Shown here: positions 14,288 to 34,443 of the stretch, in pieces
Position numbering within the stretch: position 1 is the first letter of the stretch
How the letters are laid out: each line of letters begins with the position of its first letter
Assembly (NCBI GenBank): GCA_963841215.1
Contig: CAWJBW010000003.1
Span: forward strand, 680,269 to 744,268
Source: an uncultured Actinomycetes bacterium
GTDB lineage: Bacteria; Actinomycetota; Acidimicrobiia; IMCC26256; PALSA-610
Length of the DNA: 64,000 bases
Direction of reading: 5' to 3'
Translations under genes and position numbers: made by a program
The notes under the pieces: generated by a model
What the model was told of the DNA's origin: nothing
The model's database searches: none
The model's input: only the letters and a program-made list of their open reading frames with translations

Positions 14288-14371
14288 GTCGGAGTGGCGG
14301 AATAGGCAGACGCGCTAGGTTGAGGGCCTAGTGCCCGCAAGGGCGTGGGGGTTCAAGTCCCCCCTCCGACA
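14288..14371 (+). tRNA. tRNA-Leu, anticodon GAG (type II, long variable arm); CCA not encoded
   Basis: Hand-folded cloverleaf: acceptor GTCGGAG/CTCCGAC plus discriminator A; anticodon stem CTAGG/CCTAG with loop TTGAGGG (anticodon GAG, G37); variable arm TGCCCGCAAGGGCGT; T arm GGGGG-TTCAAGT-CCCCC. Confidence 0.9.
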
Positions 14372-14391
14372 CGCAGGAATGTTCGATCGAG

Positions 14392-14423
14392 CACCCGAGG
14401 TCACACGAACCTCGGGTGTTTTC
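14392..14423 (+). terminator. Rho-independent terminator after tRNA-Leu
   Basis: Perfect 10-bp stem CACCCGAGGT/ACCTCGGGTG with 7-nt loop, followed by TTTTCG. Confidence 0.7.
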
Positions 14424-14479
14424 GCGTCGCGCGCGCCGCTCGTTTGGTCCCGCGTGCGAGCCCGAACGCACATGTGTAT

Positions 14480-15613
14480 TCAGCGTGTCGGGAGGTTCGG
14501 TGATGCCAGCGCGTCGGCCCCGTATCGGCGTCGGACCACCATCCACGGATCCGCGAATTGCGTGACGCCATCGCGTCGATTCTCCCAGGCCGCGTGCGCA
14601 CGCAGGGCAGGACGCGCGATCGGACCGATGAGTCTCGCTGCCTGTCGCTTCTTACCAAGTGATTCCGCGATCCACTGAACGGTCTCGTCCCAACGGTGGT
14701 TTTGGTATTCCAGCGCGCGCTGAGACTCGTTGGTGTCGAACCAGTCGGTCAGGCCCCAGGCGCTGTCGTCGTCTGGGTTGCCGGGTCGATTGATCGACGG
14801 GCCGATGCGGCCGAGGCCGATCGCGGTATAGCAGTCATTTTGTACTGCGGTGTGCGTCAGTACGTGAGACTCGTCGCCACCGATGACGAACGTGGTGCCG
14901 GAGACGGTGTCGATCCGGTCCGCAGCGTTGATGCAGGCGGCGGCCGCGTCCCGTGCGTCGACCATGTGCACGCGATTGTCGCGGGGCGTGATTCGCGCCA
15001 TCATCATCAAGTCGGCGCGGATCGCAGTCATTTGGTCCGGCGACATGATTCCGCCCATGCGCAGGATCACATGCTTCAGGCCGCTCATTGTCACAAGTTC
15101 TTCGGCGGCTGCCTTCTGCTCGCCATAGCAGTCGATGGGATTGATCGGGGTTGCCGGCGTGACGCGGCCAAGGTTGCGGTAGGGATTGCGTGAGCCGTTC
15201 ACGGCCGCGCTGGACGTGAGAATGAAGGCGCTCTCCGGTACGTGTTTGACGGCTGCGGCCACGAGATGTCGTGTGCCTTCCACGTTGACCTTCCGCGCTA
15301 CGGACGGATAGCGGTAGCACGCGGGAGAGACGACGGCTGCGAGGTGAATGATCGCCGCCGGCTGGCGCTCCTCGACCAGTTGCCGCACGGCTTCCGGGTC
15401 AAGCAGGTCGACCCATGCCGACAAGAGATCACCGCGGCCGTTCGCCTCCTGGGACAACGAGATCGCCGTCGATTCCGTCCCCGAGTTGCGCACGTCCAGC
15501 GCCACCACTGCACTGCCGCGCCCGAGAAGGACCTCGACGACACGGCGACCGAGAAGACCCATCGCGCCGGTGACCAAGACGGGGCGCGCCGCCTGATGGC
15601 TCCCTCCAGTCAT
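14480..15613 (-). CDS. NAD-dependent epimerase/dehydratase family protein
   Basis: Start MTGGSHQAARPVLVTGAMGLLGRRV (Rossmann GxxGxxG); extended-SDR layout with a YGEQK catalytic YxxxK. Intact. Its ATG overlaps the upstream gene's stop (ATGA). Confidence 0.85.
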   Translation of the reverse strand: MTGGSHQAARPVLVTGAMGLLGRRVVEVLLGRGSAVVALDVRNSGTESTAISLSQEANGRGDLLSAWVDLLDPEAVRQLVEERQPAAIIHLAAVVSPACYRYPSVARKVNVEGTRHLVAAAVKHVPESAFILTSSAAVNGSRNPYRNLGRVTPATPINPIDCYGEQKAAAEELVTMSGLKHVILRMGGIMSPDQMTAIRADLMMMARITPRDNRVHMVDARDAAAACINAADRIDTVSGTTFVIGGDESHVLTHTAVQNDCYTAIGLGRIGPSINRPGNPDDDSAWGLTDWFDTNESQRALEYQNHRWDETVQWIAESLGKKRQAARLIGPIARPALRAHAAWENRRDGVTQFADPWMVVRRRYGADALASPNLPTR

Positions 15614-16656
15614 GGCCCTGTAGCGAAGGGAACGGTGGTGGGCACCGTGCTGCCATCTGGCATCACCAGCTCGCCGTCCGCGTTTATGTACCCGGATTCC
15701 TTGGTCGGAATGGGCACGTTCGGGTCTGGGCAAGCGCGGTCGCTGCCGCTGCCCTCACCGCATACGGACTGCGTGAAGTACGAACGCTCGAGCACATCCT
15801 TGGGCCAGGGGTCGGCGTGCATGGCGATCCACTGCGCCGGAATGTTGTAGAAGACGAAGAAGCACGCGCTGACGGCCCCGAAAATTGCGAGAAAGCGCAC
15901 GAACTGCTGCTTCGCAAAACCACCCCGGACGTTCTCCAAGCCGCGCTCGACGAATGTGCGCTCGCGATCGTCGGTGAAGAACTTGATCGAGGCAAGACCG
16001 GTCTCGACCGCGCCCCACATCAGGCCCTCATAGATCGGCCATTGGTAGTAGTGACCCACGTTGATCGACAACGATCGAATTGCCCCGGGGTAGGAATAGA
16101 GGCCCATCGGCAACACGATGCACGCCTCCATGATGAAGTCGAAGACGAACGCCATGGCGTAGGTGAGGAGGATCAAGCGGAAGGTCGTGATGTGCGGCCA
16201 CCTCGCCTTGATCTTTCGCATGCCTCCGACGAGGAGCATCGTGCACAGGAGCACGCCCCACGTGTAACCGGGCGCGTTGGTCAGGAGTGGTTCTGCCACC
16301 TGGTGACCCGGCGACTCGGGTGAGACCCATCCGGGGATGTCCGACGACCAAGAGCCGCGGTTGAACAGCCAGGTGTTATAGGTGCACCAGGTGTTGAAGT
16401 AGTTCAGCAGCGGGTCCTGAAAGAACATCAGTCCCATGGAGGCCATCAGCATGGCGTTCAGGCTGATGCGCCGGTCGCGTATCCATGGCTTGATCGCCCA
16501 GAACCAGACGGCGATCGGCAGACCCACCCACATGACGACCGACTGGATCGTCAGCAGCACCTTCATGAGCGTCGGCGGCTCGGTCGGCCCGCTGGAAACG
16601 GGTGTGAAGAACGGACCGCTGACCCACTTGATCCACACGTAGAGCTCGAGGGCCAA
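15610..16656 (-). CDS. polytopic membrane protein (AveC/spirocyclase-like family, tentative)
   Basis: 348-aa intact ORF with about seven hydrophobic helices and Trp/aromatic-rich loops (FFQDPLLNYFNTWCTYNTWLFNRGSW). Family assignment is from memory only. The true start may lie upstream (up to about 16750). Confidence 0.6.
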   Translation of the reverse strand: MALELYVWIKWVSGPFFTPVSSGPTEPPTLMKVLLTIQSVVMWVGLPIAVWFWAIKPWIRDRRISLNAMLMASMGLMFFQDPLLNYFNTWCTYNTWLFNRGSWSSDIPGWVSPESPGHQVAEPLLTNAPGYTWGVLLCTMLLVGGMRKIKARWPHITTFRLILLTYAMAFVFDFIMEACIVLPMGLYSYPGAIRSLSINVGHYYQWPIYEGLMWGAVETGLASIKFFTDDRERTFVERGLENVRGGFAKQQFVRFLAIFGAVSACFFVFYNIPAQWIAMHADPWPKDVLERSYFTQSVCGEGSGSDRACPDPNVPIPTKESGYINADGELVMPDGSTVPTTVPFATGP

Positions 16657-16872
16657 GACAGCCGCGCCGACCAGCGCCCAGACCTTGACTGGACTGCTCG
16701 GCGGGCTCTCACCTCCGACTCGGTCCGATGGCCGATCGCGTGACCAGCGGTTCGCTCATCTCGGCGGTCCTCTCCACATGACCGGGCGAAACAAATCAAT
16801 CGCTTGATTGGTTCGGTAGTCTGGGTTGTGGCGTGACGCACGTCAAGAAGAGCGGTCCGTTCCGACGAGGAA

Positions 16873-17520
16873 GTGCGGTGCGCGGTGGCCAACAGCGAGT
16901 CGCCCCTCGGGCGGCCAATCGGATCGATAGGCGAGGACACCCGACGACGCATCATTGCGGCCGCGATGCAATGCGTCGCCGAGCGCGGTTACGCCCGAGC
17001 AACGATCCGCGAGATCGCGCGCACCGCCGACATCACGAGCGGCAGCCTCTATCACTACTTCCCAAACAAGGCCGAGATCGTGAAGGCCACATACCTCGAG
17101 GTCAGTGAGGCGACGATGCCGCAGCTGGCGGCCGCCGCGGAACAGGCGGAAAGCGTGGTGGACAAGCTCGTGGCAGTGATCGACCAAGGCAGTCAGATCA
17201 TGCAGGACTATCCCTACGCCATCCCGTTCGACCGGGCCATCCGTGCGCCCGGCGTCGACGACGCGGCACTGCCAAAGATCAGCGAAAGCATCTTCGCTGC
17301 CCTCGGCAACATCGTCGAAGGTGTCATCCACCAAGCGCACCGCGACGGTGAGCTGAACCCAACCGTCACCGCTGCGGGCGCGACCAACGCAGTGTTCGCC
17401 GTACTGCGCGGCCTGTACGACTCCGGGCTCTCATCACCGAACGAGTTCCACGACACGGTGCAAGCGATACGACTCTTGATGCAGGGCAGCCTGGTCAACG
17501 GCTCCCGAGTTGACGCGTAA
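16873..17520 (+). CDS. TetR/AcrR family transcriptional regulator
   Basis: N-terminal HTH RRRIIAAAMQCVAERGYARATIREIARTADITSGSLYHYFPNK; intact 215 aa. Confidence 0.85.
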   Translation: MRCAVANSESPLGRPIGSIGEDTRRRIIAAAMQCVAERGYARATIREIARTADITSGSLYHYFPNKAEIVKATYLEVSEATMPQLAAAAEQAESVVDKLVAVIDQGSQIMQDYPYAIPFDRAIRAPGVDDAALPKISESIFAALGNIVEGVIHQAHRDGELNPTVTAAGATNAVFAVLRGLYDSGLSSPNEFHDTVQAIRLLMQGSLVNGSRVDA

Positions 17521-17565
17521 CAGCGCGGAGTGGTTCGGATGATCTGCGACGCACACCTGGCGCGC

Positions 17566-18201
17566 TCACTTCGATCTCCTCGTGCTGCGTGGACGCGGGC
17601 CCTCGAGGGCTCGAATGTGGCGTTCGACGAGCGCGACCGTTTCGTCGTGACCTAGTCCGACGCCGAACGCTTCGTCGGTCTTGAGATACCGCGAGATTCC
17701 CGAGAGCAGAACGATTACTGCCGCGGGCGGCCATTCCTTCGGATCCAGGCCGTAACCTTCGAGCACGTCGGATAAGCCGTCGAGCTGCATGCGACGAAAC
17801 TTGCGCGAGTTCTCGACCATGACAGTCTTGACGGCCTTACGGTGATTCGCCAACGCGATGAACTCGATCATCAGTTCGGTGCTCGACGGGTCTTGCATCG
17901 CGTCCCACAACGCCCACAGCGGTTGCCGCGAGGCCAGTGCCTCGCCGATGCGAACCGCGCCTCGCTCGGCACTACGGCGGAAGATCGCAATGAACAGGTC
18001 GTCCATCGTCCCGAAGTAGTAGTGGACGAGGGCCTTGTCGGTGCCGGCCTTCGCCGCGATGCGGCGCGTGCTGACTGCCGCGTAGCCCTCATCGAGCATG
18101 ATCGCTTCGGCCGCATCGAGTAGCGCGTCGTGCGCCGATGGAGTTTGTTCTCCAGTTGGTCGCCCGCGCGTTCGAACGACTGGGCTTGCGCTCTTCGTCA
18201 C
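17566..18201 (-). CDS. TetR/AcrR family transcriptional regulator
   Basis: HTH ALLDAAEAIMLDEGYAAVSTRRIAAKAGTDKALVHYYFGT; intact 211 aa. Divergent from the oxygenase cluster. Confidence 0.85.
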   Translation of the reverse strand: MTKSASPVVRTRGRPTGEQTPSAHDALLDAAEAIMLDEGYAAVSTRRIAAKAGTDKALVHYYFGTMDDLFIAIFRRSAERGAVRIGEALASRQPLWALWDAMQDPSSTELMIEFIALANHRKAVKTVMVENSRKFRRMQLDGLSDVLEGYGLDPKEWPPAAVIVLLSGISRYLKTDEAFGVGLGHDETVALVERHIRALEGPRPRSTRRSK

Positions 18202-18249
18202 TCGGTGAATTATAGTTCGTCGGCCGACGAATTATCGGGGAGGTTGCGA

Positions 18250-19512
18250 ATGGGGCGCTGGCCCAAGCCCGCCGAGGGCACCTGGACGCAGCACTACCCG
18301 GAGCTCGGCACCGCGCCGATCTCGTTCGACGACTGCGTCTCGCCCGAGTTCTATGAACTCGAACGGGAGGCGATCTTCAAGCGGTGCTGGCTGAACGTCG
18401 GCCGAGTCGAACAGCTTCCCCGAAAGGGGAGCTATTTCACGAAGAACATCGATGTCGCGAACGCGTCGCTCATCGTGGTCCGCGATCGTGACGGCGCCGC
18501 CCGCGCGTTTCACAACACCTGCCGTCATCGGGGCAACCGACTCGTGTGGAGTGACGACCCTCGCGAGGAGACGCAGGGGTTCTGCCGGCAGTTCGTGTGC
18601 AAGTACCACGGCTGGCGCTACGGCATCGACGGCGAACTCACCTTCATCCAACAGGAGAACGAGTTCTTCGACGTCGACAAAGATGCGAACGGGTTGGTTC
18701 CGGTTCACTGCGACGTGTGGAACGGGTTCGTCTTCGTGAACCTCGACCGGGAACCGCGTCAGAGCTTGCGCGAGTTTCTCGGGCCGATGATCACGGCGCT
18801 CGACGACTACCCCTTCGGCGCGTGTGCGGAGCACTACGACTTCGAAGCGCACAACAACAGCAACTGGAAGCTGTTCGCGGACGCGTTTCAGGAGTACTAC
18901 CACGTGCCGTCGCTGCATTCGCAGCAGATACCGCCGGCGGTACGACCTCCGAACATGGCGGTCGAATGCGCGCACTTCGGTATCGACGGCCCGCATCGCG
19001 TCGTCAGCACTGCCGGGGCGCGCCGGTGGACGATGCCGCCGGAAGCCATGTACCCGATTGAGCGCGCGACCAAGAGCGGCCTGGTCGGTCCATGGGAGAC
19101 ACCTGATCTCGGGCCGCTGCCGGCGGGACTGAACCCCGGTGGCGTCGAGCCGTGGGGCATCAGCAATTTTCAGATCTTTCCGAACACGGAGATCTTGATC
19201 TACGGCGGGTGGTGGCTCGTCTACCGGTATTGGCCGACATCGCCGGGCACCCATCGTTTCGAAGGCACGCTCGCGTTTCACCCGGCCCGCACGGTGCGCG
19301 AGCGGATCGAGCATGAAGTTGCGGCGGTTGTCTTCAAAGAGTTCGCGCTGCAGGACGCGGGCATGCTCGGTGGCACGCAGGCCGCGCTCGAGTCGCGCGT
19401 GCTCGACCGGTTCCCGCTCAACGACCAAGAGATTCTCGTTCGCCACTTCCACGCAGTTGTCGGCGAGTGGGTCGACCGGTACCGCCAGGAGAACGCGATG
19501 GTCGACGCGTGA
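18250..19512 (+). CDS. Rieske [2Fe-2S] oxygenase, alpha-subunit type (copy 1)
   Basis: Rieske ligands CRHRGNRL...CKYHGWRY, then a catalytic domain with FQEYYHVPSLH. Intact 420 aa and alignable along its whole length with 20702..21972. Confidence 0.85.
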   Translation: MGRWPKPAEGTWTQHYPELGTAPISFDDCVSPEFYELEREAIFKRCWLNVGRVEQLPRKGSYFTKNIDVANASLIVVRDRDGAARAFHNTCRHRGNRLVWSDDPREETQGFCRQFVCKYHGWRYGIDGELTFIQQENEFFDVDKDANGLVPVHCDVWNGFVFVNLDREPRQSLREFLGPMITALDDYPFGACAEHYDFEAHNNSNWKLFADAFQEYYHVPSLHSQQIPPAVRPPNMAVECAHFGIDGPHRVVSTAGARRWTMPPEAMYPIERATKSGLVGPWETPDLGPLPAGLNPGGVEPWGISNFQIFPNTEILIYGGWWLVYRYWPTSPGTHRFEGTLAFHPARTVRERIEHEVAAVVFKEFALQDAGMLGGTQAALESRVLDRFPLNDQEILVRHFHAVVGEWVDRYRQENAMVDA

Positions 19513-19843
19513 CGGCGATGCTGCCGCGAGCGTTCGCGGAGTTCGAGTCGTTCGCGCCGGTGTGGTGCTTGCCAACCGAGGTTGAGCGGTGGCAGTCAGC
19601 GCCATTGCAGCACCATGGCGGAGCTCAGCGCGTTCTATGACGCGTTCTTTCCCGCGTCTCGAAGAAGCGATCGAGTTTTGCGACCAGTTTCCGCTCGACG
19701 ATCTTCCCGCCGACGTCACGAACTTGCTGCAGCTGATCCATTCCCTCGTCATGGTGGCGATGGCGGTCGAGATTTTCGGTCAGCCGAAGACGATCGATGC
19801 CGCCGACGCGGTCCTGGATCGCATCCGGGAGCCGTTGCCGTGA
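19509..19843 (+). CDS. small conserved hypothetical protein paired with Rieske oxygenase (copy 1; two frame switches near 19590 and 19650)
   Basis: GTG 19509 overlaps the oxygenase stop (GTGA). The pieces MLPRAFAEFESFAPVWCLPTEVERW / STMAELSAFYDAFFP / RLEEAIEFCDQFPLDDLPADVTNLLQLIHSLV align with the intact paralogue at 21969..22298. Confidence 0.6.
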
Positions 19844-20688
19844 TCACGATCGAGACCCGGCCGCTGGGTGCGAGCGTCGGTGCCGAGGTGCTCGGCGTCG
19901 ACGCCGAACAACTCGTCAACGACGCTGCGATCGCGCCCGAGCTCGTCGACGCGCTCGAGGCGAATGGCGTCCTCCTCTTTCGCGGGTTGCACCTGCCGCC
20001 CGAGCAGCAAGTCGCGTTCTGCCGCCACATCGGCGAGGTCGACAGCTCGAACGGCAACCACGATGTCGACGGCATCTACCGGGTCTCACTCGACCCCACG
20101 ACGAATCGGCGTTCCGCCGCCTACCTCCTCGGCACCTTTGCCTGGCACGTCGACGGTTGTACGCCCGATGGCGACGAGTGCCCGCAGATGGCGACCGTCT
20201 TGAGCGCCAAGGCCGTTTCTCAGGACGGCGGTGAGACCGAGTTCGCGAGCAGCTATCGGGCGTATGACGATCTCGCCGACGACGAAAAGGTGCACCTCTC
20301 GACCCTGCGGGTCGTGCATTCGCTCGAAGCGTCGCAACGGCGCGCGACACCCGATCCGTCGCCGAAACAACTGGCGGCATGGAGATCGCGGCGCGCCCCA
20401 CGAGCACCCGCTGGTGTGGACGCACCGCAGCGGGCGCCGATCGCTCTTGCTCGGCGCGTCGGCCGATCACGTCGTCGGGATGGATCTCGACGACGGGTCG
20501 CGCACTGCTCGAAGCGCTGCTCGCAACGCGCGACCACGCCCGATCGCGTCTACCGGCACGAGTGGTCGGTCGGCGACACCGTGATCTGGGACAACCGCGG
20601 CGTGTTGCACCGCGCCGCGCCCTACGACCCGTCGTCCGGGCGAGAGATGTTGCGTACGACGATCCTCGGCGACGAGCCGATCCAATAG
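19840..20688 (+). CDS. TauD/TfdA family Fe(II)/2-oxoglutarate dioxygenase (three frame switches, 20385-20530)
   Basis: ITIETRPLGASVGAEVLGVD, FAWHVDG (HxD iron ligands), ATVLSAKAVSQDGGETEFAS, HPLVWTHRSGRRSLLLG, VIWDNRGVLHRAAPY. Confidence 0.8.
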   Translation: MITIETRPLGASVGAEVLGVDAEQLVNDAAIAPELVDALEANGVLLFRGLHLPPEQQVAFCRHIGEVDSSNGNHDVDGIYRVSLDPTTNRRSAAYLLGTFAWHVDGCTPDGDECPQMATVLSAKAVSQDGGETEFASSYRAYDDLADDEKVHLSTLRVVHSLEASQRRATPDPSPKQLAAWRSRRAPRAPAGVDAPQRAPIALARRVGRSRRRDGSRRRVAHCSKRCSQRATTPDRVYRHEWSVGDTVIWDNRGVLHRAAPYDPSSGREMLRTTILGDEPIQ

Positions 20689-20701
20689 GAACGACCCAGA
20701 G

Positions 20702-21972
20702 ATGTCTCGCTTTCCCAAACCGCCCGAGGGCTCGTGGACCGAGCACTACCCCGAGCTCGGAACGCAGCCCGTCGCGTACGAGGACTCGATCTCGCCCGAG
20801 ATCTACGAGCTCGAGCGAGAAGCAATCTTCAAGCGGGCCTGGCTGAACGTCGGCCGCGTCGAACAGATACCGCGGACCGGCAGTTACTTCACCAAAGAGC
20901 TCGCGGTCGCGAGCACATCGATCATCGTCGTGCGCGACCGCGACGGCGCGGTCAATGCGTTCCACAACGTCTGCCGGCACCGCGGCAACAAGCTGGTGTG
21001 GAGCGACGATCCGCGCGCCGAGACACAAGGCACCTTTCGGCAATTCGTCTGCAAGTACCACGGCTGGCGCTACGACCTCGACGGCAGCCTGTCCTTCGTG
21101 CAACAAGAGGACGAGTTCTTCGACCTCGACAAGAGCTGTCACGGACTGGTGCCCGTGCACTGCGACGTGTGGGCCGGCTTCATCTTCGTCAACCTTGCGC
21201 CCGAGCCCGAACAATCGCTGCACGAGTTTCTCGGCCCGATGATCACCGCGCTCGAGGGATATCCGTTCGAACAGATGACGGAGCGATTCGCGTATCGCAC
21301 GGACGTGCGCGCGAACTGGAAGCTCTTCATGGACGCGTTCGCGGAGTTCTACCACGCACCGGTCCTGCACGCGAAGCAGTCACGGGAGCGCTACGCGGCC
21401 GCCGGCGAGAAGTACGGCTTCGAAGCGCCGCACTATCGCATCGAAGCACCACACCGGCTCGTCAGCACGTCGGGTGTGCGCAACTGGGAGATGGGCGACG
21501 ACGCGGTCAAGCCGTCGGAAGTCCTGACGCGCGGCGGATTGTTCGGCCCGTGGGACAAGCCCGACCTCGGCGAGATGCCGCCCGGCCTGAACCCAGGGCG
21601 CTGCAAACCGTGGGGACTCGACTCGTTCCAGCTGTTCCCGAACTTCGTCATCCTGATCTGGAACCAGGGCTGGTACCTCACGTACAACTACTGGCCGACG
21701 TCGTACAACACGCACACCTTCGAGGGGAACGTGTACTTCCTGCCCGCGCAGACGGCACGGGAACGCGTCGCGCACGAGATGACGGCCGTGACGTTCAAGG
21801 AGTTCGCGCTGCAGGACGGCAACACGCTCGAAGCGACGCAGGTGTCGTTGGAAACGCGGGCGGTCGATCACTTTCATCTCAACGACCAGGAAGTGCTGTT
21901 GCGCCACCTGCACAAGGTCGCCGGCGACTGGGTCGACGACTACCAGCACGCGCCGCGAGGGCACGCGCATGA
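20702..21972 (+). CDS. Rieske [2Fe-2S] oxygenase, alpha-subunit type (copy 2); stop apparently lost by a late frame change
   Basis: CRHRGNKL...CKYHGWRY with a full-length match to copy 1. The literal ORF runs on to 24304 through three downstream genes. By analogy with copy 1 the gene should end at the ATGA junction near 21969-21972. Confidence 0.8.
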
Positions 21973-22298
21973 CGATGCTCCCCGGCGAGTTTGCCGATCT
22001 CGAACCGCTCGCCGAGAAGTGGTGTCTCGCGTCCGAACCCGAGCGCTACGAGACGCGGCTCGCCACGGCGATGCCCGAACTGCAGGCGGTCTACGACGCG
22101 CTCGAGCCGCGCATTGCCGCCGCGATCGACTACTGCGACCAGTACGCGCTCGACGACATGCCCGACGACGTCGTCAACCTGATGCGCCTCATCTACTCGT
22201 TCATCAACGTGTCGTTCCCCGTCGAGGTGTGGCTCCAGCCCCGCGTCCCCGACAGCGGATCGGCGTATTTCACCTGCTTCGTGGAGCCGCGCCCATGA
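21969..22298 (+). CDS. small conserved hypothetical protein paired with Rieske oxygenase (copy 2, intact, 109 aa)
   Basis: MTMLPGEFADLEPLAEKWCLASEPERYETRLATAMPELQAVYDALEPRIAAAIDYCDQYALDDMPDDVVNLMRLIYSF... No family recognised; paralogue of 19509..19843. Confidence 0.65.
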   Translation: MTMLPGEFADLEPLAEKWCLASEPERYETRLATAMPELQAVYDALEPRIAAAIDYCDQYALDDMPDDVVNLMRLIYSFINVSFPVEVWLQPRVPDSGSAYFTCFVEPRP

Positions 22299-24290: not shown

Positions 24291-24309
24291 ACGTGATCCA
24301 CTAGCTCGC

Positions 24310-24650: not shown

Positions 24651-24794
24651 GATGACCCCATGTCGGCCTTTGTGCGCTGGTCGGAGCGGGCTCCCACGAG
24701 ACCAACATCCCATTGCCGGAAGCGAGTGCCGCCCTTCTCTGATTAGGGCTATGCCGGCGGAGTCGACCGGAGTCGGTACCGGTAATCACGGGCC

Positions 24795-25292: not shown

Positions 25293-25346
25293 GCCGCGAG
25301 GTCGACTGAGCCTTGCCAGAGCAACGCTCTACGGAACGGAGTAATC

Positions 25347-25359
25347 GCCCCTCCGACAC
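25347..25359 (+). repeat. tRNA-Leu 3'-end direct repeat, copy 2 (GCCCCTCCGACAC)
   Basis: 12/12 identity to tRNA positions 14361-14372, same orientation. Confidence 0.85.
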
Positions 25360-25377
25360 ACAGAAGGCCGCCTGTTG

Positions 25378-26211: not shown

Positions 26212-26543
26212 CTGGTCGCCGCCTTCCCCGCGATGTGGCGCTTGAACGACTGCAGCTGTTCGTTCCAGTGGGCCTGGATCTGATCGAGCCAGGCTTGCAT
26301 CGCGGCCATCGACTCCGGTCGCAGGTGGAACACGCGCGTGCGTGCGTCGTCGCGCGGCCGTTCGTCGCGCACGATGCCGGCGTCGAGCAGCACGCGGAGA
26401 TGGCGGCTCATCGTGGGCGGTGATGTGCCCGCGGCCGCGGCCAGTTCTCCGGCGCGGCGGGGGCCCGACCCGAGCAGCTTGACGACCGTCCGGCGCGTGG
26501 AGTCGGCCAGGGCTTCGAAGACCTGTTGCTCGGCGTCAGGCAT
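26208..26543 (-). CDS. ArsR/SmtB family transcriptional regulator
   Basis: VFEALADSTRRTVVKLLGSGPRRAGELAAAAGTSPPTMSRHLRVLLDAGIV; intact 111 aa. Confidence 0.85.
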   Translation of the reverse strand: MPDAEQQVFEALADSTRRTVVKLLGSGPRRAGELAAAAGTSPPTMSRHLRVLLDAGIVRDERPRDDARTRVFHLRPESMAAMQAWLDQIQAHWNEQLQSFKRHIAGKAATR

Positions 26544-26608
26544 GGCCAGATATTTACCAGATGACAGAACTATTGTCAGCTCCCGGCTGTATCGCGTATC
26601 GTCTTGCC

Positions 26609-27010
26609 ATGGCTGATACGCAGATCCAACGCTTCAACCCGGTGCTCCGCTACGACGACGGCGAGAAGGCGATGGCATTCCTCGAGGAAGCCTTCGGGTT
26701 CGAGCCCGGGCCGGTTCACCGCTCGCCCGACGGCGTGATCGTCCACGCCGAGATGGCGCTTTGCGGGCAGTACATCGGCTTGTCGGAGCGTGCGAAGAGC
26801 GAGAAGACGATCTTCGACCTCGGTCCCTGCGTCGTCTACGTGGTGCTCGACGACGATGCGGCGATCGACGCGATGCACGCGCGAGCAGCCTCGGCAGGAG
26901 CCGAGATCGTCATGGAGCCACAGGATCAGGACTACGGCTCGCGTGACTTCTCGGCGCGCGACCCCGAAGGCTTCGTCTGGGCGTTCGGGACGTACCGGCC
27001 GGGGACGTAG
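26609..27010 (+). CDS. VOC (glyoxalase/bleomycin-resistance) family protein
   Basis: MADTQIQRFNPVLRYDDGEKAMAFLEEAFGF...VHAEM...DYGSRDFSARDPEGFVWAFGTY; intact 133 aa. Confidence 0.8.
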   Translation: MADTQIQRFNPVLRYDDGEKAMAFLEEAFGFEPGPVHRSPDGVIVHAEMALCGQYIGLSERAKSEKTIFDLGPCVVYVVLDDDAAIDAMHARAASAGAEIVMEPQDQDYGSRDFSARDPEGFVWAFGTYRPGT

Positions 27011-27029
27011 GGGAATCGAGCACCGCGCG

Positions 27030-27170
27030 ATCGTCGTCCGCGGCTCACGCAGCGGCCGGAAGGTTGCGCGCATCTCCTCCGAGAAGAGCTCCGGTTGCTC
27101 CCAGGCGGCGAAAATGGCCGCCGTTGCCGATCGCGGCCTCGAGGTCGAGCCAGCCGGTCCATCGGTCGCG
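27030..27170 (-). pseudogene. epoxide hydrolase C-terminal remnant (paralogous to the 3' end of 31383..32603)
   Basis: Reverse frames give WLDLEAAIGNGGHF / AAWEQPELFSEEMRATFRPL, matching YFNEVDKGGHFAAWEEPRLFSDELRSAFRPL of the intact gene. The 5' truncation point abuts repeat copy 3. Confidence 0.6.
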
Positions 27171-27189
27171 TGTACTTAGGGTTTGTGGC

Positions 27190-27202
27190 GCCCCTCCGAC
27201 AC
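27190..27202 (+). repeat. tRNA-Leu 3'-end direct repeat, copy 3 (GCCCCTCCGACAC)
   Basis: 12/12 identity to the tRNA 3' end, same orientation. Confidence 0.85.
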
Positions 27203-27760: not shown

Positions 27761-27771
27761 GTGGAGTGACG

Positions 27772-28516
27772 CTACGAGCCGAATGACGGTGTGGTGTTAG
27801 CGAGTTTCGCTGAACCCGGCAGTGAGGATGAATCGCTTCGGGTCAGTGAACGAGAGTGACCGAGGTCGAAGTACTCAGCCACGATCCGATCGTCATGCGG
27901 CTCGATGTGTGCGTGCGCACGCGCGAGCTGCCAGCCCCACGATGACGCGGAGTCCCGCGGGTCCTTGCAGAGATTAGGAGCCGTCTCGAAGTGCTCGCAG
28001 AAGAGCGCGCTCTTGAGCGTCGACTCGATCGGGACCGTGCCTCGAGCTCTGGAGAAGGTGCTAGTGCGACGGTGTCGACCGGAGTCGGTATCGGTATATG
28101 CGGGCTTCATCGCCCTCTCGCTCGAAGCGGCTCGAGTACGGGTTGCTCTCCTCTGTCCACGCCCTCGACCAGTGGGCGACGGCGTTGCCGAGGAATAGGC
28201 TCGCCCGTTTCCAGCCGTAGTCCGGGCTCGCCGCAGCCGCCACCGCGCGCTCAGCGAGATCAGGTACCGCTGCAATCGCTCGGCGGAGATCCTCGTGATT
28301 GAGGAAGGCGCCATCGGCGTCCTCGATCGCCCTCGCGAGTACCGGCCAGGTGAGCTCGGACGGCATCACTGCATCCCGCTTCGCTCGCGACCGCCGTCGC
28401 AGGCTCGAAGTTGGCGGCTTCGGACGTCGAGGCGTGCACAAGCCGCGCTGAAGGCAAATGGAGGAGGCGATCGGGTCGTCGGGATGGTGCGGACAGCAGT
28501 CATCGAGATCGGTCAC
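27772..28516 (-). CDS. hypothetical protein encoded by repeat module B plus a unique C-terminal part (frame switch near 28080)
   Basis: ORF 28061..28516 matches the module A product. Its continuation in ORF 27772..28314 (...GTVPIESTLKSALFCEHFETAPNLCKDPRDSASSWGWQLARAHAHIEPHDDRIVAEYFDLGHS...) is absent from copy A. Confidence 0.45.
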
Positions 28517-28674
28517 GCAACGACACGCTACGAGCCTGGATGGCGAGCCGCCGGTTGGCTTCGCCCAGCGCGTCCCAGCAGCCGGGGCCGCGACAGCTAG
28601 TAGTCAGGCCGCGAGGTCGACTGAGCCCTGCCAGAGCAAGGCTCTACGGAACGTAGTGATCGCCCCTCCGACAC
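28074..28674 (+). repeat. 0.6-kb duplicated module, copy B, ending in a tRNA-3'-end repeat
   Basis: See copy A (24762..25359). Confidence 0.85.
28662..28674 (+). repeat. tRNA-Leu 3'-end direct repeat, copy 4 (GCCCCTCCGACAC)
   Basis: 12/12 identity. The downstream flank GAACGTGTGTTCGATC also resembles the tRNA's own downstream flank GGAATGTTCGATC. Confidence 0.85.
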
Positions 28675-28843
28675 TCGAACGTGTGTTCGATCAGCGTCCC
28701 CAGAACGGGCGTAGTTACAGGAGTAATCCCGGGAGTAGGTGCGCGGGAGTAGTCATGCAATCGCTGTCCGCCGATTCGCCTAGTCCGGCGCGCCTGCGGT
28801 GCCGCGATCGCGCTACGCGCCGACATTGCGCCTGAGGAAGCTC

Positions 28844-29550
28844 CTACGTCAGCGCGGGAGACGTCGTGCGGTCCGCCGCGGCAATGACCTGTGCGGTGTG
28901 CTGCGGGTCGAAGACTCGACTGGTGACATGGTGCAGGCGATGACACGCTCACGAAGTCGTTCATTGCGGTCTGATTGCCGTGTACGGCCGCGAGGAGGTA
29001 TTGCATCTTGGGTGGTAGAGGGTCGAGTGTCGCCATCTGCGTCGTGAATTCGTACATCGGCATCGCGTGCCCGTCGCGTGCCTGGTGGCACGTCGACATC
29101 GCATCGTCAAAGCTGCGCCACCCGTCGAATGCGTCACATAGTGCATTCGTGAAGTGTTCGGCGTCCCCCAGAAGCGTCGCTGATGCCTTGTGCGGTGATC
29201 GGGTCTTTGTCGTAACCGGCGTCGCCGACGAGCGCCCAACCGGGACCGAACGGGCGGCGGAAGGAGTTCGATACTGCTCCGCCTGCGAAGCGGGCCTCGC
29301 GTGTGGCGTTGTGCATGCGTGCGGCGAACTCGGGTGCGAGCTCGAGGGTCTTGAGGTAGTTGCCCTCGACGTCTGCCTTGTAGGCGGCCGCCTCGGAGTG
29401 GGGCGACCCGAGGACGAGGAGCGTCAGCCCGTCGTTGGTGGGGAACGCGCCCCAGCCGCGCTCGGGTCGAATCACCGTCTCCATGCCGTCAAGGGGTAGC
29501 CCGCTCCAGTATGTGTAGTAGCTCCACTGCAGCATCGCCTGGCGTTTCAA
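28844..29550 (-). pseudogene. FAD-dependent monooxygenase/oxidoreductase, 5'-truncated and frame-shifted
   Basis: YYTYWSGLP..., GWALVGDAGYDKDPITAQGISDA, then in other frames DAEHFTNALCDAFDGWRSFDDAMSTCHQARDGHAMPMYEFTTQMATLDPLPPKMQYLLAAVHGNQTAMNDFVSV and VFDPQHTAQVIAAA. No N-terminal GxGxxG domain lies upstream. Confidence 0.65.
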
Positions 29551-30223: not shown

Positions 30224-30949
30224 ATGACGTCAACTTCGGATGAGATCGTGACGGTCGCACTCGTGCACGGCGCCTTCGCCGACAGCTCGGGCTGGAACGG
30301 CGTGATCGAGCGCCTCGAGAACCACGACGTGCCGGTGACGACCATTCCGAACCCGCTACGCGGCATCTCGATCGATGGCACGTACGTGAGGAGCGCGCTC
30401 GAGCAGATCCCCGGGCGGGTCCTCGCGGTCGGGCACTCGTACGGCGGAGCCGTGATAACGAATGCGGCGACCGGGCTCAGCAATGTCGTCGGATTGGTCT
30501 ACGTCGCGGCGTTCGCGCCGGAGGAGGGTGAGACGCTGCTGGAGGTCGATCAAAAGTCGAGGGACAGTGTGCTCTTCTCGGCACTGGTCCCGCGCCAGTA
30601 CCCGACCGCGGACGGCACGGCGACGGAGTTCTCGATCGACCCGCCGAAGACTCGCGAGGCGTTCGCCGGTGACTTGTCGGACGAGCAGATCGCGCTGATC
30701 GCGGCAACCCAGCGGCCGATCTCAGAGCTCGCGTTCGGGGAGCCATCCGGTCCGGCGGCGTGGAAGTCCTTACCGTCATGGGCGGTCGTCCCGAGTGGCG
30801 ACAAGGCGATCGGTACGGACATCGTGCGCTTCTACGCCGAGCGCGCCGGCGCCGCCATCACGGAGCTCGAGGGCTCACACGTGATCATGATCTCCCAGCC
30901 ACAAGCGGTCACCGACGTGATCGAGTCCGCAATCGCCAAGCTTGCCTGA
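30224..30949 (+). CDS. alpha/beta hydrolase
   Basis: Intact 241 aa: VALVHGAFADSSGW, nucleophile elbow GHSYGG, C-terminal EGSHVIMISQP. Confidence 0.85.
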   Translation: MTSTSDEIVTVALVHGAFADSSGWNGVIERLENHDVPVTTIPNPLRGISIDGTYVRSALEQIPGRVLAVGHSYGGAVITNAATGLSNVVGLVYVAAFAPEEGETLLEVDQKSRDSVLFSALVPRQYPTADGTATEFSIDPPKTREAFAGDLSDEQIALIAATQRPISELAFGEPSGPAAWKSLPSWAVVPSGDKAIGTDIVRFYAERAGAAITELEGSHVIMISQPQAVTDVIESAIAKLA

Positions 30950-31088
30950 GCGCGCGCGACATCCACCCGACGCTCACCCCTTTGGTCTGGGGATGAGCAA
31001 CGTTTCCGCGGGACATCACACGCGCACCGGTGCCTCTGGGGCACGTGGCCACGGCAGGATTCGCCAGTGCCGATCGAAATTGATCATT

Positions 31089-31098
31089 CCTCCGACAC
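31089..31098 (+). repeat. tRNA-Leu 3'-end direct repeat, copy 5 (shortened: CCTCCGACAC)
   Basis: 10-nt match in the same orientation. The flank CCCGGGAGTAGGGG...GGTCATGCA is shared with the flanks of copies 3 and 4. Confidence 0.6.
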
Positions 31099-31174
31099 AC
31101 GCTTGTACCCCCGGGAGTAGGGGAGCGCATGATCCCGGTCATGCAGCGATAGCGAACTGACCGGCAGCGGGAGC

Positions 31175-31209
31175 GCGTGGGGTGAGAGTTCGAGTCCCCC
31201 CTCCGACAC
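31175..31209 (+). repeat. tRNA-Leu 3' remnant, copy 6 (about 35 nt: end of variable arm, T arm, acceptor 3' strand)
   Basis: GCGTGGGGTGAGAGTTCGAGTCCCCCCTCCGACAC versus tRNA GCGTGGGGGTTCAAGTCCCCCCTCCGACAC. The last 22 nt match 21/22; a 4-5 nt insertion breaks the T stem. Confidence 0.8.
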
Positions 31210-31382
31210 GAACGGTGTTCGGTACTCGCTGCGGCCCGGCGAACGCACGGACCGCTCCAAGCACCCAGACCGGCGGAGAGTGTCTAGGGACCGCCGTCGA
31301 ACGAATCCTTCGTTGAGTCGAGTGGGGTTCGAGGTTCAGCAGTCGAGGAGGTCGACGCGTCCGCTAGGCCGTCGTGTGGCGC

Positions 31383-32603
31383 CTAGTTCACGAGGGTCTG
31401 CGAGCGCAGTGGCCGGAAGGCGGAGCGCAACTCGTCCGAGAAGAGCCGTGGTTCTTCCCAGGCGGCGAAGTGGCCGCCCTTGTCGACTTCGTTGAAGTAG
31501 GAGAGGGTGGGGTAGACGGCCTCGGCCCAGCTGCGCGGGGTAGCCCAGATCTCGCCGGGGAACGTCGTGAAGCCGACCGGAACCGAGACCGGCGGAGGAG
31601 GCTGGCCGCTCGCAAGCGCTGCGGCCAGCGCTCGTGCGTCCTCCCAGTACGACCGGGCCGCCGACGCTGCGGTGCCGGTCAGCCAGTACAGCGTGATGTT
31701 GTCGAGGATGTTGTCGCGGGTGAGGTTGCCCGACGGGTCGTTGTTGACGAACGCATCGGAGATCTTGAGGTAGGAGTCGGTGTCGTGGTCGAGCAGCCAG
31801 GCCGCCAGCGCGACGGGTGAATCCAGCAGGGCGTAGCTGATCGTCTGTGGCCGCGTTGCCATCTCGAGGAAGTAGCCGAAGCCGTCCTCCCTGAACGTGG
31901 CGAATGCCTCGGCGGCCGCGCGTTCCTTTTCGGATTCCTTGGGCAGGTGATCGCCGATTGCGAGCACCGCGGTGAGCAGGTTCAGGTGGTAGCCGATCAA
32001 ACCGGCGACCGCCTGGCGGCCCATCAGGTCCGTGACCAGGGCACCCACGTCGCCGCCCTGGGCGACGTAGCGGGTGTAGCCGAGGCGGTGCATCAGCTCC
32101 GCCCACGCGCGTGCGGTGCGGCCCGCGTCCCAGCCGAGTTCAGTCGGCTCGCCGGAAAAGCCGTAGCCCGGGAGGGACGGCAGCACCAAGTGGAACGCGT
32201 CTTCAGCGCGTCCACCGTGCGCGGTCGGGTCGGTGAGTGGGCCGACGGTGTCGAGTAGCTCGATGACCGAGCCGGGCCAACCATGGGTCATGATCAGCGG
32301 CAATGCGTTCTCGTGCGGCGACTTGACGTGGATGAAGTGGATGTCCACTCCGTCGATCTCGGTCTTGAACTGCGGGAGCGCGTTCAGTCTCGCCGCGCAC
32401 CTGCGCAAGTCATACCCGTTCGTCCAGTAGCGGGCGAGCTCCTGCAACGTCGCGAACTGCACGCCCTGCGATCGGTCGGCGACGAGCTCCTGGGTCGGCC
32501 AACGCGTTGCCGCGATGCGCCGGCGCAAATCGTCGATCTGCTCCTCTGGAATCTCGATCTGGAACGACCGAATATCGCTCGTGCTGTCGACGGTTGTGCT
32601 CAT
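31383..32603 (-). CDS. epoxide hydrolase (microsomal EH N-terminal domain plus alpha/beta hydrolase)
   Basis: Intact 406 aa from ATG 32603 (AAGGAGG upstream): FQIEIPEEQIDDLRRRIAATRWP, IHFIHVKSPHENALPLIMTHGWPGS, nucleophile GGDVGA, GGHFAAWEEP. Confidence 0.85.
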   Translation of the reverse strand: MSTTVDSTSDIRSFQIEIPEEQIDDLRRRIAATRWPTQELVADRSQGVQFATLQELARYWTNGYDLRRCAARLNALPQFKTEIDGVDIHFIHVKSPHENALPLIMTHGWPGSVIELLDTVGPLTDPTAHGGRAEDAFHLVLPSLPGYGFSGEPTELGWDAGRTARAWAELMHRLGYTRYVAQGGDVGALVTDLMGRQAVAGLIGYHLNLLTAVLAIGDHLPKESEKERAAAEAFATFREDGFGYFLEMATRPQTISYALLDSPVALAAWLLDHDTDSYLKISDAFVNNDPSGNLTRDNILDNITLYWLTGTAASAARSYWEDARALAAALASGQPPPPVSVPVGFTTFPGEIWATPRSWAEAVYPTLSYFNEVDKGGHFAAWEEPRLFSDELRSAFRPLRSQTLVN

Positions 32604-32665
32604 GACGCCTCCTTGTTTGTGATGTACAGCTGTTCTCCGCGGTCGGTCTCGATGCGCATCGCCGG

Positions 32666-32937
32666 CTACATCTCTGTCGCCGGAGAGGTCGAGCTGGAGC
32701 ACGCGGATGCCACGGAGGTCGAGCCAGGCCCGGGCCTCCGCGCACGATGCGGACCTCGGCGGTGTCGCATGTTGGGCATCGCAGCACGATGCCGGGCGCG
32801 CGGAGGTAGGCGTGCAGCGCTCCGATCGGTCTCGTGTCGCCGCAGTTCGCGCACGTTGCACGAGCGACGGTCATCTCCGAGGTGAAGATGTCCGCGAGGG
32901 CTCCCGCGGCAGCGTTGCCGTCGAGCGCATCGGTCAT
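32666..32937 (-). CDS. small Cys4 zinc-ribbon-like protein (DUF6510-like, tentative); frame-disrupted, 3' end inferred
   Basis: MTDALDGNAAAGALADIFTSEMTVARATCANCGDTRPIGALHAYLRAPGIVLRCPTCDTAEVRIVRG, then after a shift AWLDLRGIRVLQLDLS. The literal frames have no stop before the epoxide hydrolase ATG; a TAG at 32666-32668 is reachable with one more shift. Confidence 0.5.
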
Positions 32938-32938
32938 G

Positions 32939-33659
32939 TCAGCCTCCGGTGGGTCCAAACCGCTCGGTCCTGATGTTCGCCGCGTCGTGGCCGAGGGCGA
33001 TGAGTGTGTCGGCGGCAGTCTCGACGAATGCGGTCGGTCCGCACACGAAGCAACGAGGCTCGACCGCCGGCGGCCAGCCGACTTCAGCAAGGAGCGCGGC
33101 GTCGACCCGTCCCCGCCGGCCGGTCCATTGCGGAGGGGTGACGCGGGTGAGGGTGTGAGTCACGGCTCGGTGCCTGTCGGTGAGCTCCGTCAGCTCGTCG
33201 CGGTAGAGGAGATCCTCGGCTGTGCGTGCCGAGTAGACGAGATGCATCGCGCCTTGGTGGTCGATCGTCCGGTGGTGCCGCAGCATTGCCATGAGCGGGA
33301 CCACACCGGAGCCGCCGCCCACGAGGAGCACCGGGCGGGTGTCGTCGGGCTCCCAGACGAAGTAGCCGCCGATCGGGACCGCGTAGCTCGAGCTGGTCGC
33401 CGACGTCGAGCATCGTGGTCAGATAGGGCGACACCTCGCCGTCATCGAGCCGCACGACCGTCAGCTCCAGGAGGTCGGCGCCGGGCGGCGAGGCGATCGA
33501 GTAGCTGCGTTGGGCGGAGTAGCCGTCCTCGGCGGTGAGGCGCACGTCGACGTGGTGGCCGGCGCGGTGCCCGCGCCAGTCGGGAAGCTCGAGCCGCAGC
33601 GTGACCGCAGTGACAGTCTCGGGGATCGTCTCGGCGACCGTGGCGACAAGCCATCGCAC
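32939..33659 (-). CDS. ferredoxin-NAD(P) reductase-like FAD/NAD-binding oxidoreductase (one frame switch near 33375)
   Basis: RSYSIASPP (RxYS FAD motif), LELRGP-IGGYF, LLVGGGSGVVPLMAML (NAD GGxGxxP), CFVCGPTAF. Confidence 0.75.
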
Positions 33660-33663
33660 CGCT

Positions 33664-34269
33664 TCAGTCCTCCCAGTAGCGCTGCTCGCGCCACGGGTCG
33701 CCATAGTTGTGGTAGCCGAGGCTCTCCCAGAAGCCGGGCTCGTCCTCGTCGAGCAGCCGCAGGCCCCTGACCCACTTGGCGCTCTTCCAGAAGTAGAGGT
33801 GGGGGACGAGGAGCCGAGCAGGGCCTCCGTGCTCGGCTTCGAGTTCGTCGCCGTCGAAGGCATAGGCGACCCACGCCTTGCTGTCGAGCACGTCGGAGAG
33901 CGGCAGATTGGTCGTGTAGCCGCCGTCGGAGAAGGCGAGGACGAAGTCGGCGGACGTTTCGATGCCGTCGAGCAGGACATCGACCGACACCCCGGTCCAG
34001 CGGGTGCCGAGCTTGGACCACTTGGTCACGCAGTGGATGTCGACGGTGATGTCCTCTGTCGGCAGGGAGCGGAGCTCCTCCCACGTCCACCGCGCCGCCA
34101 CGGTGCCGCGGTCATCGACGATCGTGAAGTCCCAATCGTCGAGCGGCACCGACGGTGTGGGCCCGGCGGTGAGGACCGGAAAGTCATCGACGAGATACTG
34201 GCCGGGAGGGATGAGGCCGACACCGGGCTGACGGCGACGACCCTCGAAGCCGCGGTTGACGATGGCCAT
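33664..34269 (-). CDS. sulfite-oxidase-like molybdopterin oxidoreductase (catalytic-domain-only type)
   Basis: Intact 201 aa: DIHCVTKWSKLGTRWTGVSV, EHGGPARLLVPHLYFWKSAKWVRGL, FWESLGYHNYGDPWREQRY. Confidence 0.8.
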   Translation of the reverse strand: MAIVNRGFEGRRRQPGVGLIPPGQYLVDDFPVLTAGPTPSVPLDDWDFTIVDDRGTVAARWTWEELRSLPTEDITVDIHCVTKWSKLGTRWTGVSVDVLLDGIETSADFVLAFSDGGYTTNLPLSDVLDSKAWVAYAFDGDELEAEHGGPARLLVPHLYFWKSAKWVRGLRLLDEDEPGFWESLGYHNYGDPWREQRYWED

Positions 34270-34425
34270 CAGGCCTCCCTTCGGTGTTCAGCAACGTAGG
34301 CCGCCGTCCCGGCATGGGCAACGAGCTCGCATTGTGTTGTCCCGCGATGTGTTCGTCCTATCGGGTCATCCTCAGGTCAGTGCGAGGATGGTCCGCAAGG
34401 TGGGCGTGTGCGTAAGGTCGAACTC

Positions 34426-34438
34426 GCCCCTCCGACAC
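34426..34438 (+). repeat. tRNA-Leu 3'-end direct repeat, copy 7 (GCCCCTCCGACAC), distal island boundary
   Basis: 12/12 identity. The preceding GGTCGAACTCG also resembles the tRNA T loop/stem. Confidence 0.85.
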
Positions 34439-34443
34439 GAATG

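Follow-up and report, generated by a model that had tools for sequence, protein, structure and literature searches.

A tandem array of tRNA-Leu(GAG) 3'-end repeats in an uncultured acidimicrobial bacterium, most likely built by large serine recombinases

Results and Discussion

In a stretch of 64,000 nucleotides from an uncultured Actinomycetes bacterium (Acidimicrobiia; assembly GCA_963841215.1, contig CAWJBW010000003.1, positions 680,269 to 744,268), hereafter called the window and numbered from its first nucleotide, a tRNA-Leu(GAG) gene is followed by a 20-kb accessory region that is partitioned by same-strand copies of the 3' end of this gene. We regard it as likely that this region is an array of attachment (att) sites built mainly by elements of the large serine recombinase (LSR) type, now devoid of a recombinase and partly decayed. 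The builders were most likely the LSRs found in relatives. For this genome, a 20-kb patch of catabolic and redox genes would thereby be explained as horizontally acquired and currently immobile.

In the proposed mechanism, repeated site-specific recombination at the 3' end of tRNA-Leu(GAG) would leave copies of a 12-mer core as junctions. Each incoming unit would bring a left arm that mimics the tRNA, a core and a right arm, and its insertion would rebuild the tRNA and push older units downstream. Across the Acidimicrobiales the site would be used mainly by several LSR lineages, and also by tyrosine-integrase elements and an IS481-like insertion sequence (IS). The array in the window would be a mixture of decayed LSR elements (segment 3 and a mini-segment of 111 nt) and cargo-only units, the latter beginning with a LexA-box or hairpin arm and finishing with an LSR-type left arm. 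An earlier reading of the DNA from its letters alone (the sequence-only reading) had already proposed that integration, repeated at the 3' end of the tRNA, gave rise either to a decayed hotspot or to an array mobilised in trans. This proposal is supported, by decay in the window and by cassette exchange in other genomes; site-specific integration holds as the process, with large serine recombinases rather than tyrosine integrases as the main family.

Core repeats in the window

The core is the 12-mer CCCCTCCGACAC, with which the intact tRNA-Leu(GAG) gene ends and which has six exact matches on the + strand of the window (Table 1). In shuffled versions of the window, sites with at most one mismatch to the core numbered 0.86 on average and none of 100 shuffles reached six, so that the five recurrences downstream of the tRNA listed in the sequence-only reading are upheld. 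In the source assembly as a whole (3.88 Mb in 11 contigs, 69% G+C, 71% complete) the 12-mer occurs six times in total, on one strand and at one locus, and no further copy was found beyond copy 7 on the same contig. A dispersed REP/MITE family, the check for which had been suggested earlier, is ruled out, as the copies are not scattered over the genome. A search of the arms against Rfam matched the tRNA alone and no other RNA family.

A seventh copy (copy 5, TTCCTCCGACAC), noticed before as a shortened version near 31089, begins at 31087 and agrees with the core in 10 of 12 positions; judged by its left arm, which resembles that of a copy in the array of another genome (G020), it is a genuine copy. 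The 13-mer GCCCCTCCGACAC is, as had been remarked, common to copies 2, 3, 4 and 7. The core-to-core spacings (10987, 1843, 1472, 2424, 111 and 3229 nt) agree with the segment sizes first given, and the tRNA-like stretch at copy 6, put earlier at about 35 nt, comprises 32 nt with 88% identity to the tRNA. As in accretion islands at tRNA or tmRNA 3' ends, the target gene is intact and direct repeats of its 3' end lie behind it on the same strand.

Table 1. Features of the tRNA-Leu(GAG) array in the window
Feature	Position	Strand	Basis or remark
tRNA-Leu(GAG), intact	14288-14372	+	ARAGORN; Rfam tRNA 52.8 bits
Core copy 1, last 12 nt of tRNA-Leu(GAG)	14361-14372	+	sequence
Right arm of junction 1: degenerate SOS-box-like GGAATGTTCGAT, then terminator-like hairpin CCCGAGGT..ACCTCGGG, then TGTTTT	14373-14425	+	
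Segment 1 (11 kb), lower G+C	14373-25347		Pfam, composition
Acyl-CoA dehydrogenase N-terminal fragment	24310-24650		Pfam Acyl-CoA_dh_N
Repeat of about 610 nt, first copy, ending in class B left arm and core copy 2	24748-25359	+	
Core copy 2	25348-25359	+	exact match
Segment 2: VOC/glyoxalase, ArsR, VOC	25360-27190		Pfam
Epoxide hydrolase 3' remnant, 85 nt	27041-27125		segment 2; ends 65 nt before copy 3
Core copy 3	27191-27202	+	exact match
LSR vestige, 44 residues (about 13-56 of the protein of about 545 residues)	27835-27966	-	tblastn, family hidden Markov model
Repeat of about 610 nt, second copy, ending in class B left arm and core copy 4	28060-28674	+	
ORF of 101 residues without known family	28061-28366	-	in second copy of 610-nt repeat
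Core copy 4	28663-28674	+	exact match
Perfect LexA/SOS box TCGAACGTGTGTTCGA	28675-28690		sequence; immediately after copy 4
Four direct repeats of GG(G/C)(A)GTA(G/A)T	28707-28755	+	sequence
FAD-dependent monooxygenase, first ~177 residues missing	28873-29550	-	
Alpha/beta hydrolase, segment 4 cargo	30224-30949	+	Pfam
Core copy 5 (TTCCTCCGACAC, 10/12)	31087-31098	+	left arm like G020 copy
Mini-segment: type 2 right arm gcttgtaCCCCcGGG fused to type 2 left arm cgggagcGCGTGGGGT...	31099-31197	+	
Core copy 6	31198-31209	+	exact match
Degenerate SOS-box-like GAACGGTGTTCGG, spacer one base short	in 31198-31222	+	follows copy 6
Segment 5 cargo operon: epoxide hydrolase, FNR-like reductase, molybdopterin oxidoreductase	31383-34269	-	Pfam
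P-type left arm (GCGTG 18 nt before core) with copy 7	34402-34438	+	
Core copy 7	34427-34438	+	exact match
IS481-like transposase remnant, internally deleted	34442-34968	-	rve_3 E=0.0016 (weak), motif matches

The locus in related genomes

The gene order upstream of tRNA-Leu(GAG) is conserved across the family and the order. The DNA downstream of it was unrelated to that of the window in every relative examined, including a genome of the same genus (G002), and no relative was found to carry the same 20 kb without the repeats. As in accretion islands, the segments disrupt synteny and differ between relatives. Many contigs of metagenome-assembled genomes (MAGs) break off at this tRNA. G002 has an array of its own, with at least five cores and without a recombinase, and has in common with the window only one arm and an epoxide hydrolase gene (78%). 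Further arrays of the tRNA end, likewise on one strand, were found in G020 and G027 (four copies each), in G008 (two copies), in the loci L002, L015 and L020 and in many other loci of the collected contigs. In G018, a 10.3-kb element has a 54-nt repeat and encodes a tyrosine integrase.

A pattern derived from the left flank of copy 3 matched 115 stretches in one-genome-per-species collections, nearly all of them from Acidimicrobiia, over which this left arm (type 1, see below) is conserved for about 85 nt. In the 8-kb loci collected, neighbouring cores were 137 to 5556 nt apart (median near 2 kb), and the core 9-mer occurred 226 times on the array strand versus 24 times on the opposite strand. 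The arm classes of the window copies recur in more than 100 Acidimicrobiales MAGs, and arrays of 0.1-5.6-kb segments behind tRNA-Leu(GAG) are common. The segment sizes that the sequence-only reading found unusual were correctly given, but small segments are the rule at this site across the order (median about 2 kb) and no oddity of this genome. Islands of 50-80 kb were also seen behind this tRNA (L080/G080:C2, 515-575 kb; G071:C3, 300-385 kb), in which three LSR elements of 12.8, 25 and 11 kb with differing arm types stand in tandem.

Large serine recombinases and arm types

In many relatives the first gene after the tRNA lies on the opposite strand, with its 3' end 5-70 nt from the core, and encodes a protein of about 545 residues with Resolvase, Recombinase and Zn_ribbon_recom domains, by which it can be recognised as a large serine recombinase. 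In every case examined the LSR gene was located 5-70 nt to the right of the tRNA or of a core. Relatives of this protein are present in 34 of the 264 genomes of the order, with up to 83-89% identity across families, and many of them are fragmentary.

Distinct LSR subfamilies adjoin distinct right arms. Four arm types could be recognised, each with a left-arm motif, present in front of other cores, that reads as the reverse complement of the right-arm motif, at constant spacing: type 1 (left GCGTGTACT, right AGTACACGC), type 2 (left GCGTGGGGT, right CCCCACGG), type 3 (left GGCGTTGCT, right GCAACGGGG) and type 4 (left GTGTAGCGC, right GCGCTACGC). The geometry is 12-15 nt, the 12-nt core and then 7-8 nt, and in four of the five typed elements that were visible at both ends, the two ends agree in type. 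LSR att sites have dyad symmetry over about 50 bp around the crossover, as is the case with these four arm types, and copies 3, 6 and 7 of the window bear left arms of such a site. The dyad centre lies at core positions 2-4, and rare core variants occur at positions 1-3, a weak observation from a biased sample. A junction-level inverted-repeat statistic showed no difference from shuffled pairings, as is to be expected when each junction combines arms of two different units.

The pentamer GCGTG is found 13 nt before the core in the tRNA versus 18 nt in copies 3, 6 and 7. A published hallmark of serine-integrase sites is that the outer (zinc-ribbon) motif stands 5 bp further from the centre in attP than in attB (PMC3783163). 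At the sequence level, the 5-nt shift between the tRNA and the element arms corresponds to this difference between attB and attP, for the left half of the site.

Besides these types, a third class of right arm was observed in L004, L008, L012, L015, L021 and L024, consisting of CTGACCAGG or its complement followed by paired direct repeats of about 9 nt, e.g. ttgtctaacggttgtctaacg. A tyrosine integrase gene follows an arm of this class in G018 and G017, and CTGACCAGG also occurs at the outer end of the 85-nt type 1 left arm. No conserved gene was found beside the type 1 left arm, the neighbours being diverse cargo, IS elements and toxin-antitoxin genes.

Decayed LSR elements and junctions of the window

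Six-frame Pfam searches of the window revealed no tyrosine or serine recombinase domain (PF00589, PF00239), and PF00239 had zero matches across the entire 71%-complete assembly. The earlier statement that no recombinase is visible in any frame therefore stands for intact enzymes. It does not stand for remnants, as a 44-residue LSR vestige and the IS481-like remnant are present. The vestige (Table 1), with 56-59% identity by tblastn and an E-value of 2e-12 with the family hidden Markov model, is the sole trace of this LSR family in the assembly. Recombinase genes next to attL, which are a trait of the units of accretion islands, are present in relatives and absent from the window apart from this vestige. 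Since the array has no intact recombinase and the assembly none of this LSR family, the array would be frozen unless a recombinase arrives in trans. The anatomy of the junctions, the arm classes, the decay, the association of LSR genes with arms in relatives and the exchange of a recombinase-less cassette between other genomes are direct observations. For this particular array, we infer both its construction by LSRs and any continued mobility of its segments.

Copy 3 has a type 1 LSR left arm (beginning GCGTGTACT) that matches many loci, and segment 3, which follows it and contains the vestige, can be read as a small LSR element that has lost most of its gene by deletion. Between copies 5 and 6, the 111-nt unit, in which a type 2 right arm is joined to a type 2 left arm, is by its arms an LSR element emptied by deletion; this assignment is based on comparison with the LSR-adjacent arms of G080, G071 and G075, and on blastn matches in L048, L119, L134 and G002. 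Copies 2 and 4 carry a left arm of another class (class B), distinct from the LSR types. The right arm of junction 1, comprising GGAATGTTCGAT and the hairpin, forms a unit that also follows cores in L033 (blastn) and L100. Decay is evident in the LSR vestige, in the truncated acyl-CoA dehydrogenase, epoxide hydrolase and FAD monooxygenase genes, and in the IS481-like remnant.

Three minor observations concern these sequences. Just left of copy 5, the minus strand at 31031-31066 shows a 12-residue match to LSR residues 50-61, which alone is non-significant (E about 1). Outside the window, tblastn with the integrases of relatives found only remnants at C11:540723-541111, a degenerate tyrosine integrase in two pieces with its middle missing, which is related to the integrase linked to tRNA-Leu in G018. 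Clusters of GGGAGTAG/GGAGTAAT direct repeats lie by cores in both right and left arms (window 28707-28755 and 31113-31120; L048, L094 and L134), and look like arm-type protein-binding sites.

Cassettes without recombinases

The units at this site in other genomes could be compared through a sample of 62 complete core-bounded cassettes (144 kb, 143 ORFs of at least 150 residues), in which short units are favoured. Phage_integrase, Resolvase and Recombinase were absent from the families matched by at least two ORFs of these cassettes; the sole recombinase-like families among them were rve/rve_3, belonging to IS elements, and the remaining content consisted of regulators, hydrolases, dehydrogenases and toxin-antitoxin genes. 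Among pairs of junctions homologous on one side, 30 were so on the right and 23 on the left, and homology on both sides was confined to duplicate or near-identical genomes. One cassette of 2.4 kb, here called cassette X, encodes a UGSC-family enzyme and an AsnC regulator without a recombinase, and occurs in two species (L026 and L112) with 90-92% identity. Its homology begins and ends exactly at the cores, between unrelated neighbours and differing arm classes. Cassette X and the one-sided homologous junctions indicate that recombinase-less units have been exchanged as units within the clade. Mobilisation of cassettes in trans is plausible, on the cassette exchange seen in other genomes.

Alternative explanations

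Several observations weigh against an array built by LSR elements with segments that can move. The absence of an intact recombinase from the array is one of them, and no recombinase partner could be found for the class B arms of copies 2 and 4 or for the LexA-box arms. The segments of the window did not turn up as core-bounded cassettes in other genomes, and a homologue of segment 2 in G234 lies in an ordinary context with no cores nearby. One LSR element of G080 has ends of differing types. As LSRs normally permit only the reactions attP x attB and attL x attR (PMC3783163), some further explanation is required for tandem stacking by a single LSR type. The locus set was collected with the type 1 arm pattern, so that its frequencies are biased. 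Finally, no excision products were seen, but the best public runs held at most 19% of the sampled words, in short, shallow contigs with unreliable joints.

The alternative that deserves most attention is a pure field of scars, in which each segment is the remnant of an element that once had its own integrase, the arms are fossils, and nothing moves without its own enzyme. The abundant decay in the window (LSR vestige, emptied element, truncated genes, IS remnant) fits this well, as does the finding that in about half of the relatives the unit adjoining the tRNA carries a recombinase, which the classical model expects. We nevertheless hold it to be unlikely: the arms are equally well conserved in recombinase-less cassettes and in LSR-bearing units (e.g. 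about 85 nt in more than 100 sites), cassette X has kept exact core boundaries in two species without a recombinase, and recombinase-less units also adjoin the tRNA itself (L070, L114 and the window).

Mosaic arrays could also arise by homologous recombination after DNA uptake, with the 70-100-nt arm plus core serving as homology patches and site-specific recombination playing no current part. The arms are long and similar enough for such exchange, and arm-proximal blocks are duplicated inside arrays (the two 610-nt repeats of the window; L112/L125). Yet the homology of shuffled pairs stops at the core even where the neighbouring left arms belong to different classes (L026 versus L112), and the inverted-repeat covariation of arms with LSR subfamilies is not expected from this process, which makes it an improbable source of the array.

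It is very improbable that the core copies arose as target-site duplications of the IS481-like element, which inserts 3 nt after the core: L087 does have a 1.3-kb IS with inverted termini between two cores, and the same IS end follows copy 7, but no other copy touches an IS end, the others having tRNA-like, LSR-type left arms and no IS termini. An assembly artefact, in which population variants were strung together by long-read metagenome assembly, can hardly be credited, for although frame breaks are present in window genes, the repeats of only 12-600 nt are easily spanned by long reads and the same architecture occurs in many independent MAGs, finished chromosomes included.

LexA boxes at the junctions

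The commonest right arm of cargo-only units is tCGAACAaGTGTTCGAt, which starts 0-4 nt after the core and has the actinobacterial SOS-box form CGAAC-N4-GTTCG. The same palindrome is found upstream of recA (C3:364028) and twice upstream of lexA (C3:376098 and 376191) in this genome. Genome-wide there are 32 sites of this form, against about 4 expected from base composition; these sites, about 30 in number, define a candidate LexA regulon of this organism. In the collected loci, a perfect GAAC-N4-GTTC is present in 38 of 214 junctions, versus 28 motifs in the remaining 1.27 Mb. Sites of core plus box occur in 14 of the 264 genomes of the order (17 sites), and the reversed control pattern in none. 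In the window, the box is perfect after copy 4 and degenerate after the tRNA and after copy 6.

No inverted-repeat partner was found for this palindromic right arm, which proved to be an SOS box. That the box might be the native flank of the tRNA was rejected as a general rule: because a tRNA-like left arm accompanies only 4 of the 17 core-plus-box sites, the box belongs to the cassettes. It never adjoins an LSR gene. Possible roles of the predicted box are to occlude the junction, to serve as a B'-type half-site or to control read-through.

A more far-reaching reading, which we consider quite unlikely, is that of an SOS-gated, integron-like gene-collecting platform of the Acidimicrobiales, run by large serine recombinases and with a LexA lock at the junctions until DNA damage. 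Cargo-only cassettes would begin with a LexA box also serving as a B'-type half-site, which would give their circular form an attR-like site. Such circles would enter a chromosomal attL by an L x R reaction and thereby regenerate attB at the tRNA, ready for a further LSR element, which would explain how the array grows despite the directionality rules of LSRs. LexA bound at the junctions would lock them until DNA damage occurs.

Comparison with known systems

Serial integration at tRNA 3' ends is textbook knowledge, and tandem islands built by LSRs have been described in Dehalococcoides and staphylococci. Among published systems, the ssrA islands of Dehalococcoides come closest; they also consist of tandem units downstream of one small-RNA gene with same-strand repeats of its 3' end. 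These islands, linked to the LSR DsiB, are bounded by repeats of the tmRNA 3' end, and some of them have no integration module and were read as cis-mobilisable (McMurdie et al. 2011, PMC3146451). Both systems have a reverse-strand LSR gene (dsiB there) whose 3' end abuts or overlaps attL, and extra conserved sequence upstream of the repeats. In contrast to the Dehalococcoides islands, the target here is tRNA-Leu(GAG) instead of tmRNA, the units are much smaller (median about 2 kb), the six-gene integration module is not seen, the window has no intact LSR, several LSR lineages with different arms use one core, and LexA boxes occur at junctions.

The tycheposon islands of Prochlorococcus have tyrosine recombinases in 910 of 937 cases (Hackl et al., bioRxiv 10.1101/2020.12.28.424599). 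They share with the present arrays the tRNA anchor, tandem elements with partial tRNA copies between them, integrase fragments and partial tRNAs scattered over the islands, but tycheposons have mostly tyrosine recombinases and often replication genes, neither of which is seen here. The accretion model of ICESt1 and the cis-mobilisable CIMEs of Streptococcus thermophilus likewise includes att-bounded units without recombination genes, which can be moved by autonomous relatives in tandem; it involves a tyrosine integrase, conjugative elements and few large units, versus many small ones here. In the composite SCC/SCCmec islands, units are stacked in tandem at the 3' end of one gene by Ccr serine recombinases and some lack ccr, whereas the target gene (orfX/rlmH), host phylum, element size and two-recombinase system all differ from those found here.

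The stacking of small, mostly recombinase-less cassettes at one fixed site and the link with the SOS response are reminiscent of integrons, in which the LexA box lies in the intI promoter and not, as here, in the junction. An integron proper is ruled out: the window has no PF00589 match, no IntI and no folded attC, and the upstream genes encode ABC transporter ATPases. The cassette form of integrons, with co-oriented, promoterless single genes that end in attC, is excluded as well, as the segments contain 0-10 genes, on both strands and with their own regulators.

What the present analysis adds is a system that extends across a clade of uncultured Actinomycetota from soil and water. Very small cassettes, mostly without a recombinase, are stacked behind one tRNA, several LSR lineages use one core with different, co-varying arms, and many junctions contain a predicted LexA operator. 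If the cassettes are indeed mobilised in trans and SOS-gated, they would represent a second, mechanistically independent route to integron-like gene collection and a natural library in which orthogonal LSR/att pairs are all directed at one site.

Gene content of the segments

Segment 1 encodes, according to Pfam, an epimerase, an AveC-like protein, a TetR regulator, two Rieske oxygenases, TauD, an amidohydrolase, a short-chain dehydrogenase/reductase (SDR) and the acyl-CoA dehydrogenase fragment. The latter fragment, and the epoxide hydrolase remnant before copy 3, had both been recognised in the sequence-only reading and are confirmed here. Its description of a FAD monooxygenase truncated at its 5' end is also correct (the remaining part has 88% amino acid identity to residues 178-300 of a 411-residue FAD_binding_3 protein), but the cut lies about 875 nt inside the segment and not at the junction after copy 4. 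The Rieske oxygenase module of segment 1 is duplicated in tandem (18256-18555 and 20708-21007, 76% nucleotide identity, 2452-nt spacing). The SDR gene (23555-24290) and the FNR-like reductase gene (32939-33980) are each split over two frames, probably through long-read consensus errors and not as pseudogenes.

The two copies of the 610-nt repeat are 95% identical (repeat search, blastn). Neither the repeat nor the ORF of 101 residues has a Pfam match or a relative among the collected loci; the final 71 nt of the repeat, representing the class B arm, recur in one soil metagenome contig (L146).

The epoxide hydrolase gene of segment 5 (31383-32590) has 89-90% nucleotide identity to genes in genomes of two other families (G114, G116 and G200), in which no core is close by; only G065 has the gene next to a core. 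This identity is far above the approximately 75% of the conserved clade flanks, which suggests a recent horizontal transfer of the gene itself.

The terminal inverted repeat TGTCATGTCGCGAGACA of the IS481-like remnant begins 3 nt after core 7, an insertion point that is identical in L087 and L101, and one terminus of the remnant matches the intact copies in these two loci. Far outside the array, an OmpR-type response regulator at 59298-59993 has homologues with 40-58% identity in core-bounded cassettes of L104, L120, L067 and L070.

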